IMG/VR virus record: IMGVR_UViG_3300037483_001148
Coordinates: 36,046 to 100,045 of that record
Reading direction: 5' to 3' (one strand)
Origin: a virus
Length of the DNA: 64,000 nt
The notes below the pieces were generated by a model that had not been told where the DNA came from, searched no databases, and saw nothing but the letters and a program-made list of their open reading frames with translations. Position numbers and translations under genes: made by a program. Positions 11,157-36,253 of the stretch are shown piece after piece. Position 1 is the stretch's first letter. Each line of letters opens with the position of its first letter.

Positions 11157-11561
11157 ATGTCTGACTGTGTGTACTACGCTCTAAACCAACATCTTAGATG
11201 GCTTAGGGTAAGTCCGGTTAGGGTATTTGGGGTATATAACCAGGTACGCTTTCTATCCGGCCATAAATGGAACGATGATACTTTTGCCGGGGTTGTACCT
11301 TACATGGCCTTCCAGCTTGCGAAAATTTATGATGACCTGACAGCCATTGTGGAGCGTAACCCTGACTTTGACCTGTTGGCTCAAGCTAACACAGCAGAGA
11401 AAAAGTTCATGGGGGACATGGGGACAAGCCCCATTACCCCTGGCCCTGGTGTTTATTGTGGTTATTTTTCAGCCCATGCTATCTTCTGGTCACATGAACA
11501 AATGCCGATTGGGGATACATGGGTATTATCAATTAAATTCAGGAGGTTAAAAAATGACTGA
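11157..11561 (+). CDS. hypothetical protein, possible minimal Cys-His (papain-like) peptidase
   Basis: N-terminal DCVYYAL helix and distal SAHAIFW strand; AGGAG RBS; overlaps the Ubl-like gene. Confidence 0.5.
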   Translation: MSDCVYYALNQHLRWLRVSPVRVFGVYNQVRFLSGHKWNDDTFAGVVPYMAFQLAKIYDDLTAIVERNPDFDLLAQANTAEKKFMGDMGTSPITPGPGVYCGYFSAHAIFWSHEQMPIGDTWVLSIKFRRLKND

Positions 11562-11895
11562 AGTATTGACGGTTCAAATTAGAGTTTTGTTTCCAAATAA
11601 CGCTACCCATCACGCTGGTGAATCGGTAGACGTTCCGGCCCATGAGGTTCTTCGAGAAAATGACGACCTGGCCTCAATGTCGGATGCTACCCTGGTTCAC
11701 CGAGTAGAGGCGTATCTGGATTTGCCGGAAGGGACGATGCACGGCATGATCGTGCAACGGCCTGAAGCCGGGAACATTCTCATTACTGCCAAGACCCGAT
11801 TCGGCAATTTTAGTTGTGGGTACTGCGGAGCTACTTTTAGAAACTACCTGGACCTTCGCAATCACTTGACAGTGAATCCCACCCACAGCATCTAA
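11554..11895 (+). CDS. putative ubiquitin-like (beta-grasp) protein fused to a C-terminal C2H2 zinc finger
   Basis: beta-beta-alpha-beta-beta pattern ending GNILITAKTRFG (G84), then C-x2-C-x3-F-x5-L-x2-H-x6-H; AGGAGG RBS; E1-like gene nearby. Confidence 0.65.
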   Translation: MTEVLTVQIRVLFPNNATHHAGESVDVPAHEVLRENDDLASMSDATLVHRVEAYLDLPEGTMHGMIVQRPEAGNILITAKTRFGNFSCGYCGATFRNYLDLRNHLTVNPTHSI

Positions 11896-11917
11896 TGTTC
11901 CAGTTTTCCAGAACATC

Positions 11918-11946
11918 TTGACAAAATGGGTGGTTCGTAGTACACT
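11918..11946 (+). promoter_or_regulatory. sigma70 promoter for the ncRNA/tRNA cassette
   Basis: TTGACA-17 nt-TACACT; predicted +1 near 11953 coincides with the first RNA stem. Confidence 0.8.
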
Positions 11947-11952
11947 AAGACT

Positions 11953-12020
11953 ATCGTTCAACGGCAAGGGCGAACAAACACCAACAGCAAAAGTTTTTTA
12001 GCTCTTACTGCACAGAACGT
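11953..12020 (+). ncRNA. Y-RNA-like element A (minimal, no tRNA domain)
   Basis: CGTTC-AA-CGG-C-AAGGGC-GAACAAAC...GCTCTT-A-CTG-CACA-GAACG; same stem recurs in three downstream elements; upstream of Ro-like gene. Confidence 0.65.
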
Positions 12021-12038
12021 TACAGGATGGCGCGTTGA

Positions 12039-12118
12039 AAGGTAGGATTGACCGACTACCACAAATGCTGGATAAGAATGGTCGTTAAACATTAAACCCC
12101 AGTCACATCCGAAACCTT
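12039..12118 (+). ncRNA. unidentified structured RNA inside the cassette
   Basis: AAGGT/ACCTT, GGAT/ATCC, TGAC/GTCA, CGACTA/TGGTCG pairings. Confidence 0.35.
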
Positions 12119-12126
12119 AAAAATCA

Positions 12127-12268
12127 TTAACCGTTCGACTCTGGCAGCTTACAAACAGTATGGGTTCGATTCCCATATTCCAAGCTTCTTGGAATTAGCC
12201 TAATGGTAGGGCAACAGTCTTTCAAAAACTGTCTAAAAAATGCAGCTTTCAGTACATGGAACGGTTGA
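12127..12268 (+). ncRNA. Y-RNA-like element B (YrlA-like) with circularly permuted tRNA domain
   Basis: Outer stem TTAACCGTTC/GAACGGTTGA; order is T-arm ATGGG-TTCGATT-CCCAT, closed acceptor ATTCCAAG-CTT-CTTGGAAT, D-arm GCCT-AATGGTA-GGGC, anticodon arm ACAGT-CTTTCAAAA-ACTGT. Confidence 0.8.
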
Positions 12269-12275
12269 TACATAA

Positions 12276-12347
12276 TGTGGGGTAGAGCAGAGGTAGCTCG
12301 TCACGCTCATAACGTGAAGGTCGTGAGTTCGATTCTCACCCCCGCTA
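12276..12347 (+). tRNA. tRNA-Met(CAT), initiator-like
   Basis: TGTGGGG/CCCCGCT with 1:72 mismatch, GAGC/GCTC D-stem, TCACG-CTCATAA-CGTGA, GTGAG-TTCGATT-CTCAC; CCA not encoded. Confidence 0.9.
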
Positions 12348-12351
12348 CTAT

Positions 12352-12490
12352 GGCCTCCTAGCTAAAAATGCAATTGAAAGTAACCTAATCACAGAACGAG
12401 TTTCTCGTTCAACCTGGGGTACTTACAAACAATGGACAAAGCGTCAGTCTTAGGAACTGAAGAATCCTGGTTCGATTCCAGGGGAGGCCA
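12352..12490 (+). ncRNA. tRNA(TAG anticodon)-like RNA with a permuted Y-like module inserted in the D-arm (element D)
   Basis: GGCCTCC/GGAGGCC-A acceptor, TCAGT-CTTAGGA-ACTGA, CCTGG-TTCGATT-CCAGG; about 66-nt insert containing CACAGAACGAG-TTT-CTCGTTCAAC. Confidence 0.8.
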
Positions 12491-12491
12491 C

Positions 12492-12622
12492 TAATTCGTT
12501 CAACTCTAATGGCGAACAAACTTATGGTGCAGAGGTAGCACAACAAATTCATACTTTGTCGGTCGCAAGTTCGATTCTTGCTAAGTTTACCAAAAAACCG
12601 CCAATAGAACACAGAACGATTA
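12492..12622 (+). ncRNA. Y-RNA-like element E enclosing an intact tRNA
   Basis: TCGTTC-AAC-TCTA-A-TGGCG-AAC [tRNA] AAAAAC-CGCCA-A-TAGA-ACACA-GAACGA. Confidence 0.75.
12518..12592 (+). tRNA. tRNA with CAT anticodon (Met or Ile2), CCA encoded, nested in element E
   Basis: AAACTTA/TAAGTTT-A-CCA, GTGC-AGAGGTA-GCAC, ACAAA-TTCATAC-TTTGT, GCAAG-TTCGATT-CTTGC. Confidence 0.85.
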
Positions 12623-12627
12623 AAAAG

Positions 12628-12666
12628 AAAACAAAGAGTGGCCGCATTTAGCGGTCATTTTTGTTT
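12628..12666 (+). terminator. intrinsic terminator closing the RNA cassette
   Basis: AAACAAAGAGTGGCCGC-ATTTA-GCGGTCATTTTTGTTT. Confidence 0.8.
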
Positions 12667-12690
12667 AATATACATAAAAGAGGTTAAACG

Positions 12691-14169
12691 ATGGAACAAA
12701 ATACTGCCAGAAAGTTATTGTTCGACAATCTCCTAAAACTCCCCCACCGAGACTATAATGAATTAGTCCCCCACTTCTCCAAAGCAATGCTTGATGACCC
12801 CGATTTTACTTCCAAAGCAATGGTTTATCTGTTTACAACTTCAGTGATTCGAGATCAGCAAGACACGGCTGTTATTGCTCTCTTATCGTCACCAGCCCAT
12901 TTTGGCCTTCGAGATGCAGGTAAGGCTTTGTTCGGCCTGGACTTCTACAGAACTGCCAACACGACTGGTATGAAGGCTATGCCCCCATTTCGTCTGTTTC
13001 GCATCTTGCATTACCTTATGGGGTTTGGCCGGTACAAAGGTCAAAAAGCAATTAGTCCCCGACTGACCAGAACGTTGATGAATGACTACCTCACTTTCCT
13101 GGAATCTCATCCTGAGCGTTTTGATCGAGTCATTGCTCTCAATCGGCAAGAGGTTCATGATGCTTATGTCACCTTACATCGCAAACCTTCAGATCGAGTT
13201 AAGGCCATTGTGTTTGAAGACAATCCCCCCGAAGATTCCATTTTCTTTGCTATCAAGCAAGTTGGCCGGGAAGCTGACCCAATGGAAAAGGCAAGATTGG
13301 CAATGAAATTCAAGTTGCCTTATACCGTAGCTTCGGGCTTACTGCCCAAGAAAAACGCGGCAGCGCATGTGGCTCTCATTGATTTGATGTCGCCCACCGA
13401 AGCGGCCAATTCTATCGCCTGGGTAGAAAACTCAGGCGTGCTTGAAATCCCCGAAGTCAAAGCGGCTTTTGCCGCAAAGGTGGCAATGGCTAAGGACGTT
13501 ACCAGCCTGAAGCATCGAAAAAGTAGTGCATCCAAAAATGAAGCTGTTCAGCAAGCCGTATCTCAGGCCAGAGAAAAAGCTACGAGCGAAGCCAAGAAAA
13601 TCACCAAACGGGTTTTGCTCAACATTGATCGTTCCGGCTCAATGCGGCCAGCAATTGAAGTAGCTAAGGAATTTGCCGCTTTTTTAGGGGCAAGGCTGGA
13701 ATCACCTGATTTGCTCTATATGGTGGCTTTTAACGACATGGCTACTCGAATTAAGCCCCGTTCTCTGGCCTTGAGCGATGTTGAAGCAGCTTGCATGCTT
13801 ATAAAGGATAACGGGGCAACGTGTTTGGGAGTTGGGATTCAGACCGCTTTAGCAGATGGATTTGAACCGGAGGTTATTGTAACCCTCAGTGATTTTGAGG
13901 AAAACCGTAGACCCTCGTATTTGGAAATGGCCTCTAAGGTTGATTGCCAGCATGTGTTCATTGGCTTGGGCAACTACAAAGGGTATGCCCAGGCTTATAC
14001 TAATTCAGTGGAAAGCAAAGGGCATGCGGTATCGTTCTTTCCCTACATGGCTTCAGGACGTAATGACTATTACCTGTTTGAGCAAATAGCGGCTATTTTG
14101 GCTGGTCAGGGGAAAAAGAGTTTGGTCCAGGCTATTTTGGATATTGAACTGCCGTATGTGGTGAAGTAA
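12691..14169 (+). CDS. divergent Ro60/TROVE-like helical domain plus C-terminal vWA protein
   Basis: About 300-aa helical N-region (LPHR, DPDF..KAMVYL...IRD, LPYTVA, MSPTE) then LNIDRSGSM, GAT, LSDFEEN MIDAS; Ro60 size and layout; adjacent Y-like RNAs. Confidence 0.75.
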   Translation: MEQNTARKLLFDNLLKLPHRDYNELVPHFSKAMLDDPDFTSKAMVYLFTTSVIRDQQDTAVIALLSSPAHFGLRDAGKALFGLDFYRTANTTGMKAMPPFRLFRILHYLMGFGRYKGQKAISPRLTRTLMNDYLTFLESHPERFDRVIALNRQEVHDAYVTLHRKPSDRVKAIVFEDNPPEDSIFFAIKQVGREADPMEKARLAMKFKLPYTVASGLLPKKNAAAHVALIDLMSPTEAANSIAWVENSGVLEIPEVKAAFAAKVAMAKDVTSLKHRKSSASKNEAVQQAVSQAREKATSEAKKITKRVLLNIDRSGSMRPAIEVAKEFAAFLGARLESPDLLYMVAFNDMATRIKPRSLALSDVEAACMLIKDNGATCLGVGIQTALADGFEPEVIVTLSDFEENRRPSYLEMASKVDCQHVFIGLGNYKGYAQAYTNSVESKGHAVSFFPYMASGRNDYYLFEQIAAILAGQGKKSLVQAILDIELPYVVK

Positions 14170-14645: not shown

Positions 14646-14789
14646 ATGTATCTAAAATTAGGTCCGTTTGCAATAAACGTTAAAATGTATGAACTGATAA
14701 TTGTGTGTATGTCCTTAGTTCTTCTCTGTGCTGGCTTAACCGGCATAGTTAGAGCAATAGTACCTCTATTCATAAAATGTCTTTATTAA
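14646..14789 (+). CDS. small membrane protein
   Basis: GAGGT RBS; one hydrophobic helix. Confidence 0.5.
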   Translation: MYLKLGPFAINVKMYELIIVCMSLVLLCAGLTGIVRAIVPLFIKCLY

Positions 14790-15649
14790 ACGTTCTGAAC
14801 AAGCTAAGTGAACATATCCCCCAACCATTCTTAGCCCCTATCCCTCAGTCTGAAATAGTCTCCTGCTTTACTTTGCAGGAGACTATTCCTTATTGGTTTC
14901 ATCTAACCAACCCTCAACCTGGCTGGTGGTGGTTAAAACCGCATAGAAATGAAGCTGTCTTAAACCGGGAAGCTGAACCTCACGAATATCTATCTTACCT
15001 CTCACAGTTACCTCGCTGGATCGTCATTGTGATAGAGCAAAACCAGCATGGGGTAGTAGTAGTTCCTTACAATGCCTCAGATGCGACTCAACGCGGCTGG
15101 CTTAACTCTGAGCCTCGTTATGTCTATCTCACCAGAAAAGTCCAGCTTCAGACTTTTTCTGTTGTCTGTGTTAGAAACATGGCCGGAACGCTTCTATTTG
15201 ATGATTTCTATCCTTTAGATATAGAAGTGCAAAAAAAGTTGACAGATGGGGTAAACGAACAAAGGCCAGTAGTTGTGCCAGGCCATTTTAGTGTGGTATG
15301 GCAAATCGCTTTCCGGCGAATGGCCGAAGAAAGAGATCGTCAACTAAAAGAAGAAATCGAAAGAAAACGAAAGGAAGCGCAACTAACCGAAGAAGGCCGG
15401 ATTAGATACCGACTGGAATATGTTGGGGCTGAATTAGTTGAATATAAAAAACGAGGGGAACGATTTGATGTCACTTATGAGTACAATGGAGCAAGATTCA
15501 CCATGAATGTTAGACCCGACATGAGGATTGAGAGTGCCGGGATTTGTCTTTCGGGTGAAGATTCTAACCATGATCTATCATCCATTGTACTTACTATGGA
15601 ACGAGCCAGAGAGTTGCACAGACCGGGGATTGAGAGGTATCACCTATGA
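14777..15649 (+). CDS. conserved-looking protein with putative E2-like (Ubl-conjugating) C-terminal Cys motif
   Basis: C-terminal strands then IESAGICLSGED (C257), similar to the G-x-ICL active-site segment of UBC folds; coiled-coil linker; next to ThiF gene. Confidence 0.5.
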   Translation: MSLLNVLNKLSEHIPQPFLAPIPQSEIVSCFTLQETIPYWFHLTNPQPGWWWLKPHRNEAVLNREAEPHEYLSYLSQLPRWIVIVIEQNQHGVVVVPYNASDATQRGWLNSEPRYVYLTRKVQLQTFSVVCVRNMAGTLLFDDFYPLDIEVQKKLTDGVNEQRPVVVPGHFSVVWQIAFRRMAEERDRQLKEEIERKRKEAQLTEEGRIRYRLEYVGAELVEYKKRGERFDVTYEYNGARFTMNVRPDMRIESAGICLSGEDSNHDLSSIVLTMERARELHRPGIERYHL

Positions 15650-16059
15650 CTGTACCTGAATGGGCAATTGATTACATCCAATATTGGCGGGATATTTTAC
15701 TTCTACAAGAATGGCAATTTTTTACCAGCCTGACCGATGAGCCATTAGGCGATAGCCAAAATTTGGCCGGAGTGAATGTTCAAGCTGATTATGTCACGGC
15801 TCGAATTGAAATAAGGGATGACATTCCGGTTAATATAGAAGAAGCTGATGCACTCGACCAGTACAGATGGAAAAAGACGATCATCCATGAATTGGTGCAT
15901 GTAAGGCTATATCGAATTACCTGTTTTGTGCAGGACAACATATTTCCCGAACTAGGCCAGTCACTCTATGGGATAATTAGCAGGCAATTTAAGCAAATGG
16001 TTGAGCCAACAGTCGAAATTTTAACTGAAATCCTATACAGTCTGAGTGAGGCAAAATGA
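15646..16059 (+). CDS. zincin-like metallopeptidase (HExxH)
   Basis: TIIHELVHV with a distal Glu helix (VEPTVEIL). Confidence 0.7.
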   Translation: MTVPEWAIDYIQYWRDILLLQEWQFFTSLTDEPLGDSQNLAGVNVQADYVTARIEIRDDIPVNIEEADALDQYRWKKTIIHELVHVRLYRITCFVQDNIFPELGQSLYGIISRQFKQMVEPTVEILTEILYSLSEAK

Positions 16060-16628
16060 TTATTTTATGCGGTTGTGGCTCAGTTGGATCAAAGATTGCT
16101 CTTGAGCTATCAAGTTTGGATAATGAGTGGATACTTATTGACGATGATGAAATTGAGCCTGAGAATGTTCCTGTCTCAGCATATCTCCATGACCAAATTG
16201 GTCAAACTAAAGTAATAGCTCTGGCTGAATTGCTATGGCGTAAAAATAGGGTAATCGCCAAACCCTACTCAAAAACACTCAGCCGGAATGTTCACCAAAT
16301 TTTTCCAGATGGATTGGTAATTGAAAGTTTTGACAATCCGGCAGCAAGGTTGCTTACCATCAACCCATTTAAGCATGCAGACCATCCGGTAATTCACATC
16401 GGCGTAGATTTAGGTGAAGTAGGCTCAGTAGTTTGGGATGTTCATTACAGGTTGCCGGAGATTGATTTCAACCGAGGTAACAACCCCGTTTGCACGAGGC
16501 AAGCCGGGGCTAATATCATTAGGTTTACTGTTACCATAGCGGTTTATGCCATAAGTCAATACTTAAGCAATGTAGTTAAAAACAGTTATTTTATCAATAA
16601 TGGAATGATAGTGAGGATGAACAAATGA
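16056..16628 (+). CDS. ThiF/MoeB/E1-family adenylyltransferase
   Basis: IILCGCGSVGS Rossmann loop, LIDDDEIEPEN, IGQTKVIAL, ESFDN..AR; candidate catalytic Cys146 (NPVC). Confidence 0.85.
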   Translation: MIILCGCGSVGSKIALELSSLDNEWILIDDDEIEPENVPVSAYLHDQIGQTKVIALAELLWRKNRVIAKPYSKTLSRNVHQIFPDGLVIESFDNPAARLLTINPFKHADHPVIHIGVDLGEVGSVVWDVHYRLPEIDFNRGNNPVCTRQAGANIIRFTVTIAVYAISQYLSNVVKNSYFINNGMIVRMNK

Positions 16629-19940: not shown

Positions 19941-20037
19941 GAGCGAGTGGCAGAAGGGGTAAATGCACCATACAGTTCAGAGCAGTTATAGAACTGGCTG
20001 GTCATAAATTGTAGGGTTCGATTCCCTACCTCGCTCA
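19941..20037 (+). ncRNA. tRNA-like RNA with extended anticodon arm and 6-bp T-stem
   Basis: GAGCGAG/CTCGCTC-A, Leu-type D-arm, GTAGGG-TTCGATT-CCCTAC; ACCA..CAGTTC-12 nt-GAACTG..TGGT. Confidence 0.7.
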
Positions 20038-20163
20038 TAGGTAGTTCTCCGCAAGGAATCATACGGTCAAGGCATTGTAATAGTCCATGATTAAGTTGCA
20101 TGGTGAGCCAATGCGAAACGGGTAGCAGTAATTAACGAAGTGACCGTAGGCTACCGCTGCCTA
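20038..20163 (+). ncRNA. candidate pseudoknotted ncRNA
   Basis: TAGGTAG/CTGCCTA, TACGGTCA/TGACCGTA, GCATTG/CAATGC, CCATG/CATGG, crossing GGTAGC/GCTACC. Confidence 0.55.
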
Positions 20164-35268: not shown

Positions 35269-36253
35269 TCCCCATTTGGGTGCTTTTAGTAACTCCTCTG
35301 AAAGCCGGTGGGGGAAACCTGAAGAAAACAATTCCAAAATCGTGCGTTATATGATGTGTGATGCATTTGATGGGGCAGTATACGGAGTACGATTGAACAC
35401 AGGAGAAGTAAATTCAGTGGTTGCTTCAAAGAAACAACGCAAGACAACACTGATGGCAAATTGGCTACTAAATTTTGCCAGGCAATTGGAAGATAAATGG
35501 ATTTGTATTGATACTCTGGAATCAGGGATGCCACCGGGGAGATATGCCGATGTTTTAATTTCTATCTTGGCTACAAAGATAATGATCATGCAATATTTTG
35601 GCAAAGATAGAAAAGAATGGCCCTCGTCCAGGGAAATAGTAACTCATCCTGAACTTGGCCCACAACTTCGCCTTAATCCTGAATTTTTCCTATATTCAAC
35701 TCGTACTCAACTGCAACACAACGCTATTGAAGCTGCCAAGAAAGCGACCAGTACCTTACCTATTTCAATATTTGGCCCGGCTAAAGAACAGGGCCAAACC
35801 AGGGACTTAGATGCTTCACTTAAAAGATGGGAATTGTTAGCTAAGGGGGAATATCCCGGTTCGGAAGGTAAAAGACATGTCATTTTCTGTGTAGATAACA
35901 TCCAGCAGTATAGGCAGTTTGCTGGAAACTCATACTACGGTTTAGAAATCATCACCAATGAGTTTTCATCGTTCATCGTCACGAATCCCGGTACAGTTGG
36001 ATTCGCCGTATCTCAGCCTTCTATGACCTCCCAAAGGGGGGATGGTGAATTGGAAGCCAGAGGCGGCTCACGGTTGGCTGAAGAATGTAATTATGTCTTT
36101 AGCACAGAATATGACAAAGACAAGCACCCGCTATTTATGATAATCAAGACACTGTTTTCAAGACCAACTCCCCCACCGACCATCAGGCAGGAGATTGAGC
36201 CATTCAGTGGTGCATTTTTAAGACTTGCAACTCCAGTATATGCGGAGGAATAA
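35252..36253 (+). CDS. dnaB: DnaB-like (SF4/RecA-fold) helicase
   Basis: VVASKKQRKTT, TLES, CVDNIQ, VSQ, RGGSRLAEECNYVF. Confidence 0.7.
   Translation: MSMSYNPHLGAFSNSSESRWGKPEENNSKIVRYMMCDAFDGAVYGVRLNTGEVNSVVASKKQRKTTLMANWLLNFARQLEDKWICIDTLESGMPPGRYADVLISILATKIMIMQYFGKDRKEWPSSREIVTHPELGPQLRLNPEFFLYSTRTQLQHNAIEAAKKATSTLPISIFGPAKEQGQTRDLDASLKRWELLAKGEYPGSEGKRHVIFCVDNIQQYRQFAGNSYYGLEIITNEFSSFIVTNPGTVGFAVSQPSMTSQRGDGELEARGGSRLAEECNYVFSTEYDKDKHPLFMIIKTLFSRPTPPPTIRQEIEPFSGAFLRLATPVYAEE

Follow-up and report, generated by a model that had tools for sequence, protein, structure and literature searches.

A circularly permuted tRNA-like RNA with a complete anticodon-type arm lies upstream of a Ro60-like gene in a phage genome

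Four RNAs with a common handle precede a Ro60-like gene

The stretch of DNA analyzed here (64,000 nucleotides (nt), referred to as the window) is the 3' part of a 100,045-bp IMG/VR virus record from sediment, IMGVR_UViG_3300037483_001148, of which it covers positions 36,046 to 100,045. In one promoter-to-terminator unit of this window lie four paralogous RNAs that share a base-paired handle (units 1 to 4, 11955-12618), and they are followed on the same strand by a gene for a Ro60-like protein of 492 amino acids (aa). We focused on unit 2 (12127-12268, + strand), the end of which is separated by 423 nt (from 12268 to 12691) from the start of the Ro60-like open reading frame (ORF). In a preliminary description, made from the letters without database searches, this element had been taken for a permuted tRNA resembling the Y RNA YrlA that retains an anticodon arm. 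Below we describe the fold of unit 2, the handle that it shares with its sister RNAs and the protein encoded next to it, and then weigh what the RNA may do. The coordinates of all parts are collected in Table 1.

Table 1. Positions of the RNA array, the parts of unit 2 and the Ro60-like gene within the window
Feature	Position	Strand	Description and basis
Sigma-70-like promoter, TTGACA-17-TACACT	11918-11946	+	10/12 consensus; sole + strand site in 11800-12760
Handle unit 1	11955-12019	+	handle of three helices around a small non-tRNA loop
Unit 2, handle helix I	12127-12136 (5' strand; core CGUUC 12132-12136) with 12259-12268	+	10 bp, pair probabilities 0.99-1.0
Unit 2, handle helices II (CUGG) and III (AGCU), 5' strands	12141-12149	+	C12145 between them; fold
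Unit 2, 5' linker UACAAACAGU	12150-12159	+	ACAAAC motif common to the four units; final base is U48
Unit 2, T arm AUGGG-UUCGAUU-CCCAU	12160-12176	+	fold, Rfam local alignment
Unit 2, acceptor AUUCCAAG-CUU-CUUGGAAU	12177-12195	+	8 bp, CUU loop 12185-12187; fold, Rfam local alignment
Unit 2, U8 A9	12196-12197	+	fold, Rfam local alignment
Unit 2, D arm GCCU-AAUGGUA-GGGC	12198-12212	+	fold, Rfam local alignment
Unit 2, A26	12213	+	fold, Rfam local alignment
Unit 2, anticodon-type arm ACAGU-CUUUCAAAA-ACUGU	12214-12232	+	5-bp stem, 9-nt loop, UCA at 12222-12224 in the loop centre; fold
Unit 2, 3' linker CUAAAAAAUGC	12233-12243	+	near-identical CUAAAAAUGCA ahead of the unit 3 handle strand (12362)
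Unit 2, handle 3' strands	12244-12268	+	III AGCU 12244-12247, II UCAG 12249-12252, loop UACAUG, I 12259-12268
tRNA-Met(CAU), ordinary	12276-12348	+	between units 2 and 3; ARAGORN/Rfam
Handle unit 3	12353-12490	+	tRNA-shaped RNA, anticodon UAG, loop-capped handle in D loop
Handle unit 4	12497-12618	+	handle strands around an intact tRNA(CAU) with encoded CCA (12518-12592); ARAGORN/Rfam
Intrinsic-terminator-like hairpin and U run	12634-12662	+	end of array
Divergent Ro60/Rsr, 492 aa	12691-14169	+	helical ring and VWA domain with DxSxS..T..D MIDAS (metal ion-dependent adhesion site) residues; fold, profile, alignment

Unit 2 is an intact tRNA body opened in the variable loop

Direct reading of the sequence and the minimum free energy (MFE) fold gave the same succession of parts along unit 2, namely a closing stem, a T arm, a sealed acceptor, the dinucleotide UA, a D arm and a 5-bp hairpin. 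The order of T arm, closed acceptor, D arm and anticodon arm that had been claimed is thereby recovered, together with the 8-bp acceptor carrying a CTT loop. The MFE of the element is -42.5 kcal/mol, compared with -28.9 +/- 3.7 kcal/mol for dinucleotide shuffles (z = -3.67; one of 200 shuffles was its equal). The retained anticodon arm with a 9-nt loop, also part of the preliminary description, appeared in the ensemble fold as a hairpin with pair probabilities of 0.80-0.88, and the sole competing pairing, of ACAGU 12155-12159 with ACUGU 12228-12232, had a probability of 0.07. Folding the whole 716-nt array left the pair probabilities of unit 2 unaltered. The stem pairs are all intact, 22 in the four tRNA arms and 18 in the handle, and each of the eleven near-invariant tRNA core bases is present (U8, A14, G18, G19, A21, G53, U54, U55, C56, A58 and C61). 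In tRNA numbering, an A15:U48 pair is also possible.

As it stands, the sequence at 12127-12268 was called as a tRNA by neither ARAGORN nor Rfam, and the best match to the Rfam tRNA model (RF00005) reached 15.3 bits, at 12189-12258. When unit 2 was un-permuted in silico, ARAGORN reported a tRNA with the anticodon tca, whatever filler was placed in the variable loop; together with the position of the strand break, this agrees with the earlier proposal that the tRNA had been opened at the variable loop. Compared with a functional tRNA, unit 2 lacks a contiguous cloverleaf, free acceptor ends and a 7-nt anticodon loop, having a sealed end and a loop of nine nucleotides instead. Unit 2 is an intact, circularly permuted tRNA body, and its chain break lies in the variable loop. 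Judged from its sequence, the sealed acceptor end would keep it from being charged. The former label of a Trp-like stem could not be verified and is unsupported; what is established is the UCA at the centre of the 9-nt loop. Nothing on the + strand of the window is perfectly complementary to this loop, and its one-mismatch matches there are not above chance; a 7-nt complement within unit 3 (12373-12379) is likewise within chance expectation.

The handle covaries among the four units

In the handle, helix I (CGUUC/GAACG) leads through an asymmetric internal loop to helix II (3-4 bp) and, past a 1x1 mismatch, to helix III (4-6 bp), after which comes a linker with the ACAAAC motif. The handle recurs four times within 665 nt, with helix I invariant and the loop sequences conserved. 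From unit to unit, helix II is formed by CGG/CUG, CUGG/UCAG, UGGG/CCUA and UCUA/UAGA, and helix III by AAGGGC/GCUCUU, AGCU/AGCU, UACUU/AAGUA and UGGCG/CGCCA, with every change compensated. Since both helices vary per unit and yet pair fully, they covary among the paralogues. The 8-mer CGTTCRAC occurs four times in the array and once in the remainder of the 100-kb record. A promoter match of the kind found ahead of unit 1 is no more frequent than in shuffled sequences (one site, against a mean of 1.4), so the promoter is backed by its position.

The tRNA bodies of the array are held by the handle at three different points, the variable loop, the D loop and the acceptor end. In unit 3 the topology is inside out, with free acceptor ends and a handle that is capped by a loop; the acceptor is GGCCUCC/GGAGGCC, the anticodon loop is CUUAGGA and the T arm is normal, the insert is flanked by the D stem GCU/AGC and by AAUGGA of the D loop, and the Rfam tRNA score of 26.8 bits is under the cut-off. 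A common linker, CUAAAAA(A)UGCA, and similar anticodon stems mark units 2 and 3 as recent paralogues. The ordinary tRNA-Met between them possibly serves as processing punctuation. No normal tRNA could be obtained by trimming units 1, 2 or 3. In a blastn search of the array against 50,697 phage records the tRNA-Met portion alone was matched, and among sequencing runs no RNA run was listed with the array, three runs from other sources sharing the stretch of the first tRNA-Met and nothing else of it. As side observations, the loop of unit 1 contains AACAGCAA, a motif that recurs on the 5' strand of numerous unrelated permuted mimics of IMG/VR phages (e.g. L043, L063, L066 and L124), and the 107-nt spacer between units 1 and 2 (12020-12126) has a predicted GGUAG...CUACC hairpin that matches no family.

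The adjacent gene encodes a divergent Ro60

In Pfam, the 492-aa protein matched VWA_2 and nothing else, and it had a weak match to a PHROG family annotated as 'RNA-binding protein'. Its AlphaFold model (predicted local distance difference test score, pLDDT, of 80) was matched over its full length in Foldseek by 1yvp (2e-10), then by 2nvo, 9nen and the Ro60 of phage phiLo (9l5y), and VIA-align superposed it on the Rsr of D. radiodurans with a Z of 16.8 over 426 residues. In a search with a profile built from 49 family members, no other VWA protein ranked as high as human RO60 (6.5e-15), phiLo Ro60 (1.8e-12), Xenopus Ro and Rsr. Because the Foldseek matches, the VIA fold match and the ranking by the family profile agree, we assign the protein to Ro60. 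The MIDAS residues D313, S315, S317, T377 and D401 are invariant in the alignment of the 49 members, and the family comprises 303 cluster representatives at E <= 1e-30. Pfam TROVE (PF05731) matched neither the 492-aa protein, nor any of the 49 family members, nor the six-frame translation of the record, and vWA_Ro60 was matched by 4 of the 49. On the evidence of sequence profiles and a predicted model, then, the protein belongs to a Ro60 clade that goes undetected by the Pfam TROVE model.

RNAs precede the Ro60-like gene in related loci

Seven further loci (L001-L007) encode relatives of the 492-aa protein with 29-39% identity, and in all seven structured RNAs lie directly upstream of the Ro60-like gene on the same strand. 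In L004-L007 this is a single long Y-RNA-like hairpin, with CGUUC/GAACG as in the window for L005-L007; in L001-L003 a promoter leads an array whose tRNAs or tRNA-like bodies are flanked or interrupted by a stem specific to the locus. An enclosure like that of unit 4 is found in L001 (ARAGORN anticodons tta and aag) and in L003 (tcg). Closer relatives of the protein (P0002-P0007) share 46-61% identity with it. The search for further relatives by a single-protein IMG/VR query and a second sub-alignment gave nothing or L001 and L002 again, and a scan of genome contigs gave none. Two of the handle-bearing tRNA bodies have unusual anticodon arms of their own: in one of L001 (4481-4555) a C-A mismatch closes the UUA (ochre-reading) loop, and one in L003 (~2510-2530) has an 8-nt anticodon loop, CUUGAAAU, on a 4-bp stem.

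On the 3' side of the Ro60 gene, 6 of the 7 loci encode a 290-aa protein and a ThiF/E1-like enzyme, and two encode a ubiquitin-like protein. The model of the 290-aa protein has an oligonucleotide/oligosaccharide-binding (OB) fold at residues 78-147, by a weak match (Z about 7), and an invariant Cys257 near its C-terminus. This conserved gene set around the Ro60 gene occupies 11554-11895 and 14777-16628 in the window and is present also in L001, L002 and L004-L007. The set may represent a conjugation or sulfur-relay system with a link to the RNAs.

Two observations concern other parts of the window. Just past a tRNA-Ile(GAU), at 19941-20040, there is a tRNA-like candidate that was called by neither ARAGORN nor Rfam; its acceptor is GAGCGAG/CUCGCUC, its T arm (GUAGGG-UUCGAUU-CCCUAC) is good and its middle part is oversized. 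A 198-aa ORF at 7754-8350 matches Mg-chelatase ChlI-type ATPases at their first ~30 and last ~60 positions and nowhere between, as if the AAA+ core were missing.

Unit 2 shares its context and half of its anatomy with YrlA

Genes for YrlA lie less than 4 kb from rsr on the same strand, and the RNA has a 5' GNCGAAN0-1G motif and a tRNA-like domain that runs through a variable region, a T arm, a closed acceptor-like stem and a D arm (Chen et al. 2014, PMC4201824). In the crystal structure of the Salmonella Typhimurium YrlA, the anticodon stem is formed by nt 15-27 and 83-93, has no loop, and is extended by the Rsr site (Wang et al. 2018, bioRxiv 10.1101/312249). Unit 2 likewise has a Ro60/Rsr gene downstream of it on its own strand and inside the ~4-kb limit, has a terminal stem with the order of T arm, loop-closed acceptor, UA and D arm, and possesses the conserved bases of the D and T loops as well as a Levitt-type 15:48 pair. 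The Rfam YrlA model (RF02553) aligned locally at 12159-12212, over the T arm, acceptor and D arm; it scored 22.5 bits where the cut-off is 69, with an E value of 0.04 when 901 nt were searched and of 0.001 for the 100-kb record. The closed acceptor is thus YrlA-like, as had been proposed. The alignment, however, was not a full one and stopped at the D arm (model positions 30-81 of 114), leaving the anticodon-type arm uncovered. This arm is a closed local hairpin in unit 2, whereas the corresponding stem of YrlA is built from distal strands without a loop, which upholds the view that the retained arm is foreign to YrlA. The handle, moreover, leaves unit 2 from the variable loop (between positions 43 and 49, the site of the long arm in class II tRNAs) and not from the anticodon stem, and unit 2 has no GNCGAAN0-1G motif. 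Lacking three defining features, unit 2 is YrlA-like in its context and in half of its anatomy and is not a member of YrlA. Its partner protein also has no detectable TROVE signature.

Modules of a permuted T arm, closed acceptor and D arm are common in the phage tRNA arrays of IMG/VR, where we searched for a T loop followed, at the distance of an acceptor hairpin, by UAGC..AAUGGUAG. In roughly one fifth of the matches the acceptor stem is closed and has 5 bp or more; loci with permuted modules include L028, L034, L043, L059, L063, L066, L096, L099, L103, L104, L110, L124, L126 and L128, among others. In common with the array in the window, these loci hold several small RNAs with one common handle, among them one with an acceptor-closed permuted tRNA mimic, in a phage tRNA array. 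Unlike unit 2, their mimics run from the D arm straight to the basal stem and have the handle motif ACAGCAA. An anticodon-type hairpin with a 7-9-nt loop was found in none of 18 sampled permuted phage mimics; one of them has a hairpin with a tetraloop, and another a hairpin with a loop of 3 nt. None of 16 other phage loci with permuted mimics reached the Rfam gathering cut-off for YrlA; therefore the cut-off is a strict one for phage forms and does not by itself discriminate among them. Neither TROVE nor the divergent Ro60 profile, the latter used without a positive control, matched anything in four mimic-bearing phage records, of which three are fragments and one is rated 100% complete. Two of the tRNA arrays that carry a permuted mimic also contain a large structured RNA, ROOL (263 bits) at L103 10008-10599 (- strand) and GOLLD (156 bits) at L038 9181-9694 (+ strand).

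Phage Ro60 proteins with Y-like RNAs are already known from mycobacteriophages (PMC4201824) and from the Thermus phage phiLo, which encodes a Ro60 with Yrl1 and Yrl2 just upstream (PMC12135203; PDB 9KOP, 9L5Y) and whose protein is matched by the 492-aa protein in fold and profile. The phiLo Yrls, however, have been described as stem-bulge-stem RNAs that carry a CGAA motif and lack a tRNA module (PMC12135203). The Yrn1 of Deinococcus radiodurans can be drawn with a T arm and a 5-bp 'anticodon arm' that has a non-canonical 6-nt loop (PMC4201824); there, the anticodon arm is the hairpin between the D and T regions, and the Rsr stem stands at the acceptor position, as in unit 4, and Yrn1, unlike unit 2, has neither a sealed acceptor stem nor a full D arm. 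As in the permuted tRNAs of Cyanidioschyzon merolae and the split or permuted tRNAs of archaea, the 3' part of the tRNA body in unit 2 precedes the 5' part, and a short linker joins the acceptor strands. Those tRNAs are matured into ordinary tRNAs through a bulge-helix-bulge by a splicing endonuclease and a ligase, whereas the junction of unit 2 lies in the variable loop and its handle has an asymmetric internal loop (4 nt vs 6 nt) and a 1x1 mismatch, not a bulge-helix-bulge (two 3-nt bulges, 4 bp). No RtcB or Rnl2-type ligase was matched in the 100-kb record, which is 80% complete. A literature search for permuted tRNAs in phages returned nothing relevant beyond YrlA, and a 2026 preprint on three tRNA-mimic families concerns other RNAs. 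We found in neither Rfam nor the literature searched a sealed-acceptor mimic with a complete anticodon arm, a handle in the variable loop and two other attachment topologies in the same operon.

Discussion

We favor, with moderate confidence, the reading that unit 2 is a Y-RNA-type partner of the Ro60-like protein encoded by the same phage. The likeness to YrlA gains support because fold and profile both identify the adjacent gene as a Ro60 and because three paralogous handle RNAs flank the element. Such a partner would be built from two modules: a three-helix handle, formed by the 5' and 3' ends of the RNA, as the presumed docking site of Ro60, and a whole L-shaped tRNA body with a hairpin-sealed acceptor and a free anticodon-type stem-loop. 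With the acceptor sealed by a hairpin, the RNA would not be aminoacylated and would offer no free 3' end to exonucleases, as in YrlA. Since the handle leaves at the class II variable-arm site, Ro60 would sit beside the tRNA core and not where the anticodon stem ends. Both the elbow and the anticodon loop would thereby be left open, and a tRNA-binding partner could contact both together; the permuted tRNA would then act as an effector-binding tRNA mimic, as has been proposed for YrlA. Unit 2 appears to be co-transcribed with its three sister RNAs and one normal tRNA, and the polycistronic layout, the presence of that tRNA and the tRNA-type ends between units suggest that it is released by the tRNA-processing enzymes of the host, which would probably excise it. 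In a more elaborate version, which seems to us rather improbable, Ro60 would be a display platform on which the whole tRNA body, not cleavable at its end and with an anticodon loop that is free but non-canonical, serves as bait to capture a host factor recognizing elbow and anticodon alike (e.g. an anticodon nuclease from an anti-phage defence system, or a tRNA-modifying enzyme), while the sister RNAs show other faces of the tRNA.

Several findings weigh against a Ro60 partner. No permuted unit like unit 2 occurs in L001-L007, and no orthologue of unit 2 is known. The GNCGAAN0-1G motif is absent from its 5' strand (12127-12159), which has UUCGAC there; GGCGAAC follows helix III in units 1 and 4. 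Neighbouring units hold a normal-looking tRNA(CAU) with CCA, and the handles could serve in the handling of pre-tRNAs; the conserved neighbours, that is, the 290-aa OB-fold protein, the ThiF/E1-like enzyme and the ubiquitin-like protein, could be the true partners of the RNAs. These last points make up a competing account that we regard as unlikely, in which the handle would be a processing or stability element of a polycistronic tRNA transcript, or a docking site of the 290-aa protein or of a ubiquitin-like/E1 sulfur relay, and the permuted tRNA a substrate, regulator or decoy of that machinery. The tRNA within unit 4 and the ARAGORN-called tRNAs enclosed in L001 and L003 speak for it, as does the recurrence of the 290-aa protein and the E1-like enzyme behind the Ro60 gene, even if the OB fold is weak. 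However, L004-L007 have a simple hairpin next to the Ro60 gene and no tRNA to process, trimming of units 1, 2 and 3 yields no normal tRNA, and a terminal stem with an internal loop beside a Ro60 gene is the defining context of a Y RNA (PMC4201824).

Two further explanations seem less likely still. Unit 2 might be a true permuted or split tRNA, in which the CUU loop is opened by RNase P on the 5' strand and by trimming and CCA addition on the 3' strand; the resulting tRNA, in two pieces or re-ligated, would use its UCA anticodon, set in an expanded loop, in translation, at UGA or at a quadruplet codon. All tRNA invariants are indeed present and the un-permuted form is accepted by ARAGORN, and expanded anticodon loops occur in frameshift suppressors. 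The YrlA of M. smegmatis, whose acceptor-like stem has 7 bp, is cleaved by RNase P and gains CCA (PMC4201824). On the other hand, the base at position 73 is paired with the base before position 1 and is followed by CUU, not CCA, and the handle is without bulge-helix-bulge geometry. TGA is the stop codon of 39 of the 106 long ORFs, and reading it as sense did not lengthen ORFs; recoding of this stop codon as the cause of a UCA tRNA was rejected. With a sealed end, a 9-nt loop, TGA as a normal stop and no RNA ligase found in the record, a role in decoding is unlikely, and we judge this explanation very improbable. It is also hardly credible that unit 2 is a functionless scar, left when a tRNA was duplicated and scrambled during expansion of the array and now transcribed and inert. 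The linker and the similar anticodon stems that units 2 and 3 have in common suggest recent shuffling of paralogues, and the want of a known orthologue would fit as well; yet the full set of arm pairs, handle pairs and core invariants is unlike a decaying remnant.

YrlA-type Y RNAs are thought to recruit an effector to Ro60 through their tRNA-like elbow. Unit 2 keeps the anticodon arm that YrlA is missing and has its handle at a different point of the tRNA, and two sister RNAs place the common handle at two other points, so that the array amounts to a natural set of topological variants, which could reveal the surfaces of the tRNA that a partner needs. The finding also adds to a sizeable Ro60-like family (303 representatives) that Pfam TROVE missed in all 49 members scanned, and the array agrees with a published proposal in which tRNA transcripts have given rise to Y RNAs repeatedly.
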